A stretch of 64,000 nt of DNA from positions 2,944,001 to 3,008,000 of the forward strand of contig CM000151.3 of the NCBI GenBank assembly GCA_000004695.1. Reading direction: 5' to 3'. The stretch's first letter is position 1. Each line of letters starts with the position of its first letter. The stretch is from Dictyostelium discoideum. Lineage: Eukaryota. Below, piece after piece: positions 11,221 through 21,695 of this stretch. Position numbers and translations under genes: made by a program. The notes under the pieces were generated by a model. It saw nothing but the letters and a program-made list of their open reading frames with translations, searched no databases and was not told the DNA's origin.

Positions 11221-15208
<3,988 letters not shown>

Positions 15209-15445: not shown

Positions 15446-17113
<1,668 letters not shown>

Positions 17114-17761: not shown

Positions 17762-18361
17762 TTAAATATAAATAGGATGATAAGGTTTTTTTCCATGCAA
17801 TTTTGCATTGCAGACCGGACAGCTTTTTTTCTTTTTTAAGGCATTGACGATACAATCAGAGCAAAATATATGCCCACAAAGAGTTGAGACATATGGCTTT
17901 GTATCTTCAAAACAAATTGGACATTCCAAATTTTTTGATTTTTTATCACCGCCATTGGATTGCGTATCAATTGCTTTCTTTGATTCATTTTCTTTTTCCA
18001 TTTCTTTTTGAAGTTTCCAAAGTTCTGAATTTTCAGATATCGAGGATAATGATGAGTTACCTTGTTTTTCGAGTATATGAATTACCTCTGGTTTAGTTGT
18101 TTGGATGGATGCTGTTGCAGTAGTGTTGTTGTTATTGCTATTATTGTTATTTCTGACAGCTGAACGATTTGTGCCAACCAAAGATTGACGATTTGTTGGT
18201 CTAAAAAATGAGTCGTCGCTTGAGTCACTATTGCGGTCCCTACCACCAAACCCAAAACTAATGTCAATATTTTCATCAAAAAGATCCTCTGGACTAATTG
18301 GGAATTGATTTCTACGATCAAAGTGAACATCATCATCATCATCGTCTTCATCATCATCGTC

Positions 18362-18394
<33 letters not shown>

Positions 18395-19492
18395 GTCATC
18401 GTCGGTATCAAAATTATGATAATGTTTTCTCTTTTTTAAACTATTACCACCATTACCATTATTACCAATAGGGCCATTTCCTACAGCACTACCACTATGA
18501 TTATTAAAAATGTTTAATACTATTGGAAATTGTTGTTGAGATGGTGGTGGTGGTGGCTGATGTTGTGTTCTAGAATTAAAGAAACTATTATTTCTAAAAA
18601 AAGTAAAGTCATTCGCTTGTCTATTAAGGAATCTATTATTACTATTATTATTACTATTATTATTTCTATCATTATTATGATTATTATTATTATTAGCTAA
18701 ACGTGTTGCTGTCAGTACTAAAACTGGTGATTGTGGTGGAGAAAGAGTAAGATCCACAACTCTGTCATATAAAAAAAAAAAAAAAATTAATAAATCAATG
18801 TCAACAAAAACCGTGGTGTATATTATAACTTACTCTTTATCTTGATTGTTGTTTTGGTTATTTACATTTGTGGTGGTGGTAGTGGTAGTTGTGGAAGTTT
18901 CAGTAGTTTCAGTATTTGAAATAGGTGTGGGTTTATCATTATCATTTTCACCATCATCATCTTCATCATCTTCATCATCATCACTCAAATCTATAATAAC
19001 TACCTGTCTACTTGATTGGCGTTGATTCTGTTTTTCACCCTCTTTTTTGATATTAAGGTCTATTTGTTGTGATTGTTGTGATTGTTGTGATTGTTGTGAT
19101 TGTTGTGATTGTTGTTCCTCTTCTTTATTTTGTTCTCCATTTTGTTGTTCATTTTCTTCATTATGTTGTTCATTTTCTCTATTTTCTTGTTTCTCCTCTA
19201 CATTTTGCTTCACCTCTTCATTTTGTTTCTCCTCTTCATTTTGTTTCACCTCTTCATTTTGTTTCTCCTCTTCATTTTTTTTCTCCTCTTCATTTTGTTG
19301 TATTGGGTTCTTCACACCAAATGCGAAATCCTCTTGTGGGTTTTCATGTTGAACTAATTGAGAGGTACCATGAGCAATTGTTTTATTTTTATCATCTTTT
19401 TGTTGCTTATTTTCTTCATCTATCTGCCTATCCATCAATTCAAATATATCATTTAAAATTTCGGGTATATCTTGTGATGTTTGGCTGTCCAT
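17762..19492 (-). CDS. RNF4-like SUMO-targeted RING E3 ubiquitin ligase (STUbL), about 552 aa; complement(join(17762..18761,18834..19492))
   Basis: The C-terminus CPICFEDTKPYVSTLCGHIFCSDCIVNALKKKKSCPVCNAKLHGKKPYHPIYI* is nearly collinear with the RNF4 RING and tail (...CPTCRKKINHKRYHPIYI). Exon 1 carries an acidic SUMO-interaction motif, RQVVIIDLSDDDEDDEDDD, and exon 2 carries a poly-D tract plus a second hydrophobic core, VIHILE. The 72-nt intron (GTAAGT...ACAG) is phase-2 consistent (split codon gaa). The ORF track began exon 2 at GTG; no ATG is needed under this model. Confidence 0.75.
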
Positions 19493-20373: not shown

Positions 20374-21274
20374 TCAATTATTTCCTTGACCATTTGTTGA
20401 AGTGGAAATTTGAATATTTTGCATTTCAACAGTCTGTTTTTCTTCATCAGATGATGATAAAGAAGATGAAGATGAACCTTCATCATTATAATTTTGTTGT
20501 AAACCATAATTATTATTTAGATTTTGTTGATTATTTACCATATTTGGATGTCTTTCCAAAGAACATTGCTCCATATCGGAACTACATTGCACATCATCAC
20601 CAGTTGGATGACCACCCATAGTTTTACCAGAAGTACCACGACTTGAACTATATGGTGATGGATTGTTATTGTTTTTATTCTTTTCCAATTTCTTTTGTAC
20701 ATCAGTAAAGTAACCAAAGAATGTGAAAACTGTTAAAATCTTTGCACCAAAATAACGCCACATTAATGGATTATTATAGATAAATGTGACAGATGCCCAA
20801 AAACCATGGGATACACTCAAATAGGTGTGGAGAATATTGAGTGCTGGTGGAAACATATTTAAACCATTTACAATACGATTAACAACTGCAAATACCCAAC
20901 AAACAAGGAAAACTATGATATAGTTGATCAATTTGAATTGGTATGTTAAATGTTTCTCTTTATTATCACTAACACCATTATGAATAACAACATAGGTATA
21001 ACGTGATGTTAAACCAACCAATACTGCTGAAATTGCCCAAATAAATAAGAATGGACCATAGAATAACCCAAATCTATATCCAGTGAAACTTACACCAATC
21101 CAACACCAATTACCAACAAATTGTACTGTATTTTTTGCCAACATAACAATTGTTGAAATTAATGGTAAACCCCAACATAATAAATAATAATATTTTTCAA
21201 ATCTTTCTGGTTCTGGTTCTCTTTTTACAATTAACATATAAATACTAATTGCTAAAAAAAAAAATTTTTAAGAG

Positions 21275-21307
<33 letters not shown>

Positions 21308-21343
21308 AGCACATTTTCAAATAATCTGATCAAATCTTTTTTT

Positions 21344-21383
<40 letters not shown>

Positions 21384-21695
21384 TTTAAACTTACCAAGAC
21401 ATAAAGTCCACAACCAACATGCAAAACTACCATATGTAATTACAATTGCATATAAATAACAAGGGAAACCACCATTGACAGCTGTATTTGTTAAAGTTAA
21501 AATTGTTGAAGGAAAATCTTTACAAAAGGAGGTAGCACAAAAACATGCAATTACTTTTGTAACATGATTACGCAAAAGTTTTAATCTCCAAAAACCAATC
21601 AACACTGCCATACAACCCAACATTGAAGAAAAATCGGCAAATAATAATAAAACCAATGATGTTTCATTGGCTGGATTTCCATCTAAAAGACCCAT
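20374..21695 (-). CDS. carA: cAMP receptor 1 (cAR1), 7-TM GPCR, 392 aa; complement(join(20374..21251,21395..21695))
   Basis: The translation [39 protein letters not shown]...TLCL|[31 protein letters not shown]...[12 protein letters not shown] matches cAR1 over its full length as recalled from memory. A single 143-nt intron (GTAAGT..TTTTTTAG) splits codon gca (Ala101). Length is 392 aa. Confidence 0.97.

Follow-up and report, generated by a model that had tools for sequence, protein, structure and literature searches.

A two-exon gene beside carA in Dictyostelium discoideum probably encodes an RNF4-type SUMO-targeted ubiquitin ligase

Two open reading frames follow each other on the minus strand of the window, the 64,000-nucleotide stretch of Dictyostelium discoideum DNA that was analysed. 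The question they raise is whether they encode one protein and, if so, whether this protein belongs to the SUMO-targeted ubiquitin ligases (STUbLs) of the RNF4 type. The preliminary description of the locus held that the reading frame track splits a single gene here and begins the downstream frame at GTG, and the list of frames agrees: the frame at 18830..19492(-) has 220 amino acids and an ATG start, the frame at 17762..18757(-) has 331 amino acids and a GTG 'start'. The two frames (19492..18830 and 18757..17762) join via a 72-nt intron to give a 552 amino acid protein. The spliced coding sequence of 1659 nt is uninterrupted and its product ends in ...KKPYHPIYI. The gene is laid out as follows.

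17762..19492, minus strand: complete coding gene of two exons with a single intron, 552 aa, stop codon TAA at 17762..17764
18834..19492, minus strand: exon 1, 659 nt, aa 1-219 and 2 nt of codon 220
18762..18833, minus strand: intron, 72 nt, phase 2, GTAAGT...T16...ACAG, with the in-frame TAA of the first reading frame inside it
17762..18761, minus strand: exon 2, 1000 nt with the stop codon counted, aa 220-552
19064..19299, minus strand: tandem repeats within exon 1 that keep the frame, with units of 18 nt (KQNEE[EV]) and 9 nt (QQS)

On the minus strand exon 1 ends in ...CAAGATAAAGA, the intron reads GTAAGTTATAAT...T16ATATGACAG at 18833..18762, and exon 2 starts with AGTTGTGGATCTTACT. The splice junction implied by the gene model is AAGATAAAGA|AGTTGTGGATC, read as AAGATAAAGA|AGTTGTGGATCTTAC, and the junction peptide would be ...NNQDKEVVDLTLSPPQSPVLVLTATR. 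The GC content is 32-33% in the exons, 21% in the intron and 13-14% in the AT-rich flanks. There are 21 GT..AG pairs that preserve the frame, from only three distinct donor sites, and 18833 is the sole GTAAGT among them; the acceptor AG of the 72-nt pair comes immediately after the T16 tract. The other 20 pairs were rejected, as they use non-consensus donors or would delete conserved coding sequence. The two frames share one genomic frame, and the single TAA between them lies within the GTAAGT donor.

The orthologous intron is found at the same site in four related genomes, with a length of 86 nt in L001, 85 nt in L002, 75 nt in D. firmibasis (L008) and 77 nt in Tieghemostelium lacteum (L009). 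With spacers of 86 and 85 nt the two reading frames of L001 and L002 are out of frame unless the transcript is spliced, and the D. firmibasis intron holds several in-frame stops. In the annotation of the T. lacteum orthologue there is an intron, likewise of phase 2, that lies one codon away. All 9-10 exon indels relative to the close relatives L001 and L002 are multiples of 3, and the remaining gaps (14 and 13 nt) are confined to the intron. The GTAAGT..ACAG intron that the preliminary description used to join the frames into one protein is thereby upheld, and the comparative evidence supports one two-exon gene. The dN/dS of the whole gene is 0.31-0.41 against three relatives, and it is below 1 in both halves. 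The first Met codon in exon 2 is M474. In related genomes, automatic annotation has probably missed or truncated the RNF4-like gene.

The gene lies directly downstream of carA, the product of the adjacent gene being exactly CAR1_DICDI (cAR1), which settles the species as D. discoideum. An exact look-up in a protein collection that does contain this cAR1 found none of the 552 amino acid product, the products of the two reading frames and one alternative splice model; this seems to point to a missing reference entry more than to a faulty gene model. An Ac45-VOA1 neighbour is kept beside the T. lacteum orthologue, and a synteny check of the D. purpureum carA locus found the RNF4-like gene absent from that position. 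Exon 1 encodes a helix-prone N-terminal region rich in E, K and Q, a SUMO-interacting motif (SIM), and acidic and poly-T tracts. The copy number of its repeats differs between strains, with indels of 54 nt and 18 nt relative to L001 and L002.

The C-terminus of the protein carries the following features.

17810..17923, minus strand: C3HC4 RING, C500-C537, C-x2-C-x11-C-x-H-x2-C-x2-C-x10-C-x2-C
17765..17809, minus strand: RNF4-type C-terminal tail NAKLHGKKPYHPIYI, aa 538-552, in which N538, Y551 and I552 correspond to rat R181, Y193 and I194
17981..18028, minus strand: predicted helix SELWKLQKEMEKENES upstream of the RING, aa 465-480, from AlphaFold2 single-sequence models at moderate confidence

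All eight zinc ligands (C500, C503, C515, H517, C520, C523, C534 and C537) are present with canonical spacing and are invariant in the orthologues. The RING matches the Pfam families zf-C3HC4_2 (E=2.3e-11) and zf-RING_2 (9e-10), both above their gathering scores, and the Pfam search of the 552 amino acid protein found no domain besides RING families. In a search of the PDB, RNF4 chains rank best and third to sixth (E=1.5e-23 to 3.5e-9); the best is 4ap4 (E=1.5e-23), followed by 4ppe, 3ng2 and 2xeu at about 1e-12, and the alignments run through the last residue (YHPIYI). A similarity of the C-terminus to the RNF4 RING is therefore readily detected by database search, as had been proposed. The alignment is interrupted by gaps of 7 residues in the first zinc loop and of one residue ahead of the tail. 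Residues 441-552 have a dN/dS of 0.07-0.09, which indicates strong purifying selection.

A protein library of 1.84 billion proteins was also scanned, and the 153 sequences retained are the best 150 matches and three cluster members. The strict RNF4-type tail, HP[ILV][YF][ILF], occurs in 72 of them and a relaxed pattern in 93. Three of ten library matches that were looked up, Plodia and Armadillidium proteins, carry the NCBI name 'E3 ubiquitin-protein ligase RNF4(-like)'. A word-index homologue search gave no match for the full protein, for its C-terminal 112 amino acids or for the P0002 C-terminus, either as low complexity swamps the index or as the entries are absent from it. The AlphaFold2 single-sequence model of the C-terminus has a RING fold, for which Foldseek returned only generic RING matches from the PDB (E of at least 0.02) that do not discriminate RNF4.

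In rat RNF4, Y193 contacts ubiquitin in trans and I194 serves dimerisation, and the M140A+R181A double substitution abolishes E2 binding (PMC3991395). Y551 and I552 are identical to Y193 and I194. The equivalent of M140 is F504, hydrophobic as in 20 of the 93 RNF4-tail proteins. At the position of R181 the D. discoideum protein has N538; P0002 and T. lacteum likewise have Asn there, D. firmibasis has Ser, and basic residues dominate the 93 proteins as a whole (R 54, K 18, N 13, S 3). The near position-for-position match to the RNF4 RING claimed earlier thus applies to the fold and to the tail, up to the last residue, and does not extend to every catalytic contact, given the Asn in place of R181. 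That dictyostelid RNF4-like RINGs lack the basic E2-contact residue is a testable point of interest for RING mechanism.

The candidate SIMs, and two segments close to them, are as follows.

18953..19003, minus strand: SIM1, VVIIDLS core and acidic tail DDDEDDEDDD, aa 164-180
18746..18760, minus strand: SIM2, VVDLT, aa 221-225, encoded by the earliest complete codons of exon 2
18713..18739, minus strand: PPQSPVLVL, aa 228-236, a conserved PPxxP / Ser-Pro patch after SIM2, of putative function
18329..18409, minus strand: low-complexity poly-Asp/Glu tract of (GAT)n, aa 338-364
18068..18085, minus strand: VIHILE, a weak SIM candidate, aa 446-451

SIM1 (VVIIDLSDDDEDDEDDD, aa 164-180) agrees with the motif of hydrophobic core and acidic tail that was first noticed in the N-terminal half, and its core is conserved in relatives: IIDL is invariant in the D. 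discoideum protein, L001, L002, D. firmibasis and P0002, and T. lacteum has EVIDLE. SIM2 is the best conserved, with [VI]DLT kept in all six aligned sequences; the five relatives all read [VI][VI]DLT or SIDLT. According to PMC4083429, the two strongest SIMs of RNF4 read VVDLT and IVDLT. The reading frame track hides VVDLT because its second frame was begun at an internal GTG, and a SIM placed at the exon 2 boundary in this way is lost to readers that work from open reading frames. The preliminary description named VIHILE, after the poly-D tract, as the second SIM. Its location is as described (aa 446-451, past 338-364), but its conservation is poor, as it is kept only in the D. discoideum-like genomes L001 and L002 and in D. 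firmibasis (IIHILE) and is replaced by THGFLL in P0002 and by KKPHIDE in T. lacteum. The convincing candidate for a second SIM is VVDLT and not VIHILE.

The strict SIM pattern [VIL][VIL][DE][VIL][STDE] occurs twice in residues 1-495, against an expectation of 0.064 (P(>=2) = 0.0018, 200,000 shuffles). The six-way alignment shows IIDL and [VI]DLT as conserved islands; around them, identity is about 40% even with D. firmibasis. The N-terminal SIM region is long, of low complexity and fast-evolving, and it is predicted to be disordered; its pLDDT is 30-50 in a single-sequence model, which is weak evidence for disorder.

STUbLs are defined by one or more SIMs, each a V/I/L core with acidic residues beside it, that lie in a disordered region N-terminal to a RING (PMC8161396). 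The D. discoideum protein has a C3HC4 RING at its extreme C-terminus, an RNF4-type tail and two SIM-consensus motifs that are conserved across dictyostelid lineages. We infer that the gene probably encodes a member of the RNF4 family of STUbLs, a protein expected to bind SUMO and to act as a ubiquitin ligase. By analogy with RNF4, each SIM would pair with a SUMO moiety as an additional beta-strand, and multi- or poly-SUMOylated proteins would in this way be bound with avidity. The RING would homodimerise through its C-terminal tail (I552), and with an E2 on one protomer the donor ubiquitin would be held by Y551 of the other. The SUMOylated substrate would then be ubiquitinated.

RNF4 is the prototype of a single-chain STUbL. 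Mammalian RNF4 (SNURF; PDB 4AP4, 2XEU, 3NG2 and 4PPE) resembles the D. discoideum protein in its C-terminal C3HC4 RING, in the ...[KR]xYHPIYI tail and in IVDLT/VVDLT-type SIMs within a disordered N-terminal part, and VVDLT is identical to SIM3 of rat RNF4 (V62-T66). The proteins differ in length (552 amino acids here, 190-194 in RNF4) and in the number of SIMs, of which two are clearly conserved here and four are found in RNF4. The D. discoideum SIMs are about 50 residues apart, whereas those of RNF4 are much closer; they lie more than 270 residues from the RING and are embedded in D/E/N/Q/T low complexity. In T. lacteum the SIMs are 6 residues apart and joined by an acidic, Pro-containing linker, like SIM2-3 of RNF4. 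Within the RING, 7 residues of the first zinc loop of RNF4 have no counterpart, R181 is replaced by Asn and M140 by Phe.

Schizosaccharomyces pombe Rfp1/Rfp2-Slx8 and Saccharomyces cerevisiae Slx5-Slx8 are, by description, similar in having N-terminal SIMs, a C-terminal RING and SUMO conjugates as targets. These are complexes of two RING proteins, however, and the RNF4-type tail and the homodimer model published for human and rat RNF4 fit better here. RNF111 (Arkadia), the second human STUbL, shares a SIM cluster and a C-terminal RING. Its RING is described as acting in monomeric form and it has an M domain (PMC8161396), whereas the D. discoideum protein has Cys as the fifth zinc ligand, a tail of the RNF4 dimer type and no M domain in the Pfam search.

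Other readings of the locus concern the gene model and the nature of the ligase. If the TAA at 18830..18832 were a real stop, there would be a 220 amino acid acidic protein and either an independent RING reading frame or a pseudogene, unless the stop codon were read through. The common frame, the single TAA between the reading frames and a 72-nt spacer that is a multiple of 3 would all agree with this, but it is scarcely credible given the spacers of 86 and 85 nt in L001 and L002, the several in-frame stops in D. firmibasis and the splicing annotated at the same place in T. lacteum. The translated spacer (24 residues, 21% GC) is hydrophobic junk, dN/dS is below 1 on both sides of it, and the first start codon in exon 2 comes at residue 474, yet the 5' part of this exon, including VVDLT, is conserved as coding. 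It is also very unlikely that the protein is an ordinary RING E3 that is not directed to SUMO, with SIM-like strings as by-products of hydrophobic and acidic low complexity. Runs of D, E, N, Q and T are extremely frequent in the protein, and the SIM consensus, by which the motifs were predicted, is short and degenerate. However, two strict SIMs are improbable by composition (P = 0.0018), they match the strongest RNF4 SIMs (VVDLT/IVDLT type), and outside the RING they alone persist as blocks between D. discoideum and T. lacteum, the tracts beside them having been replaced or lost; the RING, moreover, falls specifically in the subgroup that bears the RNF4 tail.

The position of R181 is Asn, Asn, Asn and Ser in the dictyostelid orthologues, RNF4 with M140A+R181A is unable to bind E2 (PMC3991395), and STUbLs of two RINGs exist, namely Slx8-Rfp and Slx5-Slx8 (PMC3355946). 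The protein might thus be a SIM-bearing targeting subunit that binds SUMOylated targets, like the S. pombe Rfp proteins that work with Slx8; its own RING, without the basic E2 'linchpin', would then form heterodimers mainly with another RING protein that is catalytically competent. We consider this unlikely, since Asn or Ser occurs in 16 of the 93 RNF4-tail proteins, in many taxa, and appears to be a tolerated natural variant, and since the hydrophobic E2-contact position (F504), Y551 and I552 are all kept. No partner RING gene adjoins the RNF4-like gene and none was identified. In addition, PMC9055824 states, with Sobko 2002 as its source, that the RNF4-like protein of Dictyostelium ubiquitinates MEK1 in a RING-dependent manner. 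The single-chain, RNF4-type STUbL is therefore the reading we retain.

An RNF4-like STUbL, MIP1, has been described in D. discoideum since 2002-2007. MIP1 (MEK1-interacting protein 1) is said to be a two-hybrid partner of MEK1 that was cloned in Sobko et al. 2002, and its substrate is reportedly SUMOylated MEK1. PMC3355946 lists MIP1 among the STUbLs. Among the best 150 library matches, no further dictyostelid-like sequence with long N/Q/T runs and an RNF4 tail was found besides the orthologues P0002 and P0146. From the statements in the literature and this lack of another match, the gene is likely to be the published mip1, and otherwise a paralogue. The suggestion that the gene is a candidate for the MIP1 class of SUMO-targeted RING ligases is a reasonable one, in view of the listing of MIP1 in PMC3355946 and of the statement on MEK1 in PMC9055824.

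As MIP1 already represents the RNF4-like class in D. discoideum, the finding holds but is an ordinary one. Its significance goes little beyond annotation quality, as the model organism D. discoideum has been annotated in full; comparative support for the two-exon gene model is a by-product. It is rather doubtful that the gene is a second dictyostelid STUbL and not mip1, or that Asn or Ser at the R181 position entails a different activation of E2~ubiquitin or the need for a partner RING. If E2 activation were altered or a partner RING were needed, the Ser-Pro sites by SIM2 (LSPPQSP) could couple SUMO reading to MAP-kinase phosphorylation. The VLVL hydrophobic core of PPQSPVLVL is found in Dictyostelium sensu stricto only.

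Two further segments between SIM2 and the poly-D tract are conserved.

18500..18529, minus strand: FPIVLNIFNN hydrophobic island, aa 298-307
18425..18436, minus strand: KKRK basic cluster, candidate nuclear localisation signal (NLS), aa 329-332

The arginine-rich motif that comes directly after SIM4 and the RKK motif, both of vertebrate RNF4, are absent from the D. discoideum protein, in which KKRK is the sole basic cluster; these motifs are unique to RNF4 and do not define the family (PMC8161396). KKRK has the counterparts KKRK in D. firmibasis, RKRK in P0002 and KRRR in T. lacteum, and this conservation suggests nuclear action, with the cluster as a putative NLS. The poly-D tract is replaced by poly-N in D. 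firmibasis and is missing from P0002, and by this comparison it is apparently dispensable low complexity. FPIVLNIFNN corresponds to YPVIFNIYNN in P0002 and FVMNVYNKNN in T. lacteum, and it is possible that it forms a further SUMO- or partner-binding strand.

The RING gene is divided between two ORFs of the minus strand, the second of which is listed from a GTG inside exon 2. Examination of the region on both strands places a short intron between them:

19492..18830, minus strand: upstream ORF, 220 aa, with an ATG start
18833..18762, minus strand: intron of 72 nt, with a GTAAGT donor, a T16 tract and an ACAG acceptor
18757..17762, minus strand: downstream ORF, 331 aa, listed from the internal GTG

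On the minus strand exon 1 ends in ...CAAGATAAAGA, directly followed by the intron, GTAAGTTATAAT...(T)16ATATGACAG; the first bases of exon 2 are AGTTGTGGATCTTACT. Splicing gives a CDS of 1659 nt and an uninterrupted protein of 552 aa that terminates in KKPYHPIYI before the stop codon. Both the intron and the GTG-started ORF are exactly as the preliminary description had proposed. The 21 frame-preserving GT..AG pairs reduce to three distinct donors, the only GTAAGT among them being that at 18833, and the acceptor AG of the 72-nt pair lies immediately 3' of the T16 tract. The exons have a GC content of 32-33%, against 21% for the intron and 13-14% for the flanks. The first Met of exon 2 is residue 474 of the joined protein, the 5' end of this exon is nevertheless kept as coding. 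On sequence and comparative evidence we regard the two-exon model as established, with very little doubt.

The model was compared with related loci. Two D. discoideum-like loci (L001 and L002) and the D. firmibasis locus (L008) were fetched with cAR1 and the members of its cluster as anchors. A further locus (L009, GCA_001606155.1) encodes the library match P0146; from its LODT accession prefix we take this assembly to be Tieghemostelium lacteum. The gene in L001/L002 is 95.5% identical in nucleotides to that in the window. All four loci share the intron position, with lengths of 86, 85, 75 and 77 nt (L001, L002, D. firmibasis, T. lacteum). The T. lacteum gene is annotated at 297 aa, its phase-2 intron lies one codon off the D. 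discoideum position and directly precedes an SIDLT motif, and an Ac45-VOA1 gene then follows, as in the D. discoideum-like loci. Because 72 is a multiple of three, both window ORFs lie in one genomic frame, split by a single TAA within the donor, and read-through or intron retention was therefore considered alongside two separate genes. The spacers of L001/L002 are not multiples of three, so splicing is the only way to join the ORFs there, and the D. firmibasis intron contains in-frame TAG, TAA and TGA; two genes or read-through are thus extremely improbable. All nine or ten exon indels relative to L001/L002 are multiples of three (3 to 54 nt), the only other gaps (14 and 13 nt) are intronic. 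Relative to L001, L002 and L008, overall dN/dS is 0.31, 0.33 and 0.41, and for aa 441-552 it is 0.07-0.09. The CDS contains in-frame microsatellite-like repeats at 19064..19299 on the minus strand (18-nt KQNEE[EV] x6.3, 9-nt units x5.8) and (GAT)n x24 at 18328..18400. Copy number differs between the window and L001/L002 by indels of 54, 18 and 3-12 nt, and the protein is therefore polymorphic in length within its disordered part.

The only Pfam families matched by the window protein are RING families, at aa 499-538 (zf-C3HC4_2, 2.3e-11), with zinc ligands C500, C503, C515, H517, C520, C523, C534 and C537. The best match among all PDB sequences is the RNF4 RING (4ap4, E=1.5e-23; 4ppe, 3ng2 and 2xeu, ~1e-12), which bears out the similarity given in the preliminary description. 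In rat RNF4, M140 and R181 bind the E2, Y193 touches ubiquitin in trans and I194 is required for dimerisation (PMC3991395). The equivalent residues are F504, N538, Y551 and I552. The near position-for-position match previously claimed holds through the last residue, with both tail residues identical and the hydrophobic E2 contact conservatively replaced by Phe, but the first loop has a 7-residue deletion, one extra residue precedes YHPIYI, and Asn takes the place of the basic residue that follows the last Cys. HMMER with the last 112 aa against 1.84 billion representatives gave 39 matches below 1e-10. Among the best 150 matches and three cluster members, 72 of 153 sequences fit a strict pattern, a RING and then ...HP[ILV][YF][ILF] as the C-terminus or close to it, and 93 fit a relaxed one; three clusters among ten matches looked up are named RNF4 or RNF4-like at NCBI. 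In an AlphaFold2 single-sequence model the RING core reaches pLDDT ~80-86, and aa 465-480 form a predicted helix. Foldseek with this model retrieved generic RINGs and nothing RNF4-specific.

STUbLs combine a RING with SIMs, which have V/I/L cores and acidic flanks in disordered sequence (PMC8161396). The two strongest binders of rat RNF4 are SIM2 (IVDLT) and SIM3 (VVDLT) (PMC4083429). The window protein has two such motifs:

aa 164-180: SIM1, VVIIDLSDDDEDDEDDD, a candidate SIM by consensus
aa 221-225: SIM2, VVDLT, encoded by the first complete codons of exon 2

The second is identical to rat SIM3, and is missing from the ORF track because the ORF was cut at the internal GTG. Over aa 1-440 the D. 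firmibasis protein shares only ~41% identity with that of the window; P0002, a dictyostelid-like EukProt protein, is also a library match, and T. lacteum is the most distant of the three. The non-RING blocks that survive in all four are (V)IIDL/VIDLE; [VI]VDLT/SIDLT followed by PPxxP; FPIVLNIFNN/YPVIFNIYNN/FVMNVYNKNN; a basic cluster (KKRK/RKRK/KRRR); and SFFRPTNR-like residues. The acidic candidate SIM of the preliminary description has a conserved core. The proposed second core, VIHILE, is kept only within Dictyostelium sensu stricto, and the poly-D tract is poly-N in D. firmibasis and absent from P0002; both are weak or dispensable. The two SIMs of T. lacteum lie only six residues from each other (EVIDLENEPESIDLT), resembling the SIM2-linker-SIM3 arrangement of RNF4; in D. 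discoideum ~50 inserted residues, acidic and poly-Thr low complexity, lie between the SIMs, as does the intron. The full-length single-sequence model has low confidence throughout aa 156-461, which is compatible with disorder without being strong evidence for it. Just after SIM2 are Ser-Pro sites, LSPPQSP (18713..18745, minus strand, aa 226-236), which are conserved: D. firmibasis has SSPPQSP and T. lacteum PPSPP. These are candidate proline-directed kinase sites which, speculatively, may modulate the SIM.

The SIM-like strings could be fortuitous in an ordinary RING E3 that is not SUMO-directed. Two occurrences of the strict SIM pattern, where 0.064 would be expected (P = 0.0018), and conservation of the blocks to T. 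lacteum make this very unlikely; judged by sequence, the conservation of these putative motifs is more telling than the pattern statistics. The protein could also be an Rfp-like targeting subunit that requires a partner RING, as N538 at the basic E2-contact position would allow. P0002 and T. lacteum also have Asn at this position, D. firmibasis has Ser, and in the 93 tail-bearing matches (from the best 150 and three cluster members) it is R in 54, K in 18, N in 13 and S in 3. Asn/Ser is therefore a recurrent minority state and not an aberration, and we consider a targeting subunit unlikely.

The gene thus encodes an RNF4-type RING and tail together with conserved SIM-consensus motifs, and is probably an STUbL of the RNF4/MIP1 family, the class for which it had been suggested as a candidate. 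By analogy with RNF4 (PMC8161396, PMC3991395, PMC4083429), the SIMs would bind SUMO moieties multivalently and the RING would dimerise via the C-terminal tail. The E2 would sit on one protomer, with donor ubiquitin positioned by Y551 of the other, and ubiquitination of SUMOylated substrates would then follow. The conserved basic cluster suggests nuclear action. MEK1 would be a substrate only if the gene is MIP1.

A passage in PMC3355946 counts D. discoideum MIP1 as a STUbL with Slx8-Rfp, Slx5-Slx8 and RNF4, and one in PMC9055824 cites a Dictyostelium RNF4-like protein for RING-dependent ubiquitination of activated MEK1. Besides the orthologues P0002 and P0146, none of the best 150 library matches combines an RNF4-type tail with long N/Q/T runs of the dictyostelid kind. 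The window gene is therefore probably mip1 itself. Whether or not it is, nothing in the protein type, organism or family assignment goes beyond established knowledge, and the preliminary description read an ordinary gene correctly. Homologue search and exact look-up in the protein collection gave no match to this protein or its close relatives, though the collection contains cAR1 of this genome; this should not be taken as novelty.

In related genomes the gene is probably cut short or overlooked by automatic annotation:

L001 12275..14110 and L002 12233..14058: annotated products of 549 and 546 aa, no Pfam match
L008 14568..16388, plus strand: D. firmibasis orthologue (GCA_036169595.1), complete, 581 aa, with its 75-nt intron starting GTAGGG

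The L001/L002 products run 40 nt beyond the conserved TAA. Their lengths are exactly reproduced, a match by length, by the first intron and a 100-nt second 'intron' (GTATCGTC..TAATTTAG), which deletes the latter half of the RING and ends the product in ...CGHIFCSDSQYYHSVHLN. This second intron is probably a gene-prediction error. The D. firmibasis assembly leaves its orthologue unannotated and instead places a product of 303 aa further upstream, on the other strand (13055..13966).

The next gene upstream is on the same strand:

21695..20374, minus strand: carA (cAR1), 392 aa

Its intron is 143 nt (21252..21394, GTAAGT..TTTTTTAG), and the spliced product exactly matches Dictyostelium discoideum CAR1_DICDI/EAL70653.1/EAL70721.1. 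The two AX4 accessions (EAL70653.1 and EAL70721.1) are consistent with the known chromosome-2 duplication. By Pfam matches of neighbouring ORFs, an ankyrin-SAM-kinase gene lies upstream of carA, and an M1 aminopeptidase gene is found on the far side of the RING gene; related assemblies have the same gene order around carA. In D. purpureum (L007, GL871272.1) an Ac45-VOA1 gene directly follows carA in inverted orientation (11222..11659), and tblastn of the 21-kb carA locus did not find the RING orthologue; the gene has been moved or lost there. In the window, an ORF of 159 aa (16443..16922, minus strand) contains ~60 Asn in a row and has no Pfam match. It takes the position of the Ac45-VOA1_TM gene of related loci and probably belongs to that gene, which has several exons.
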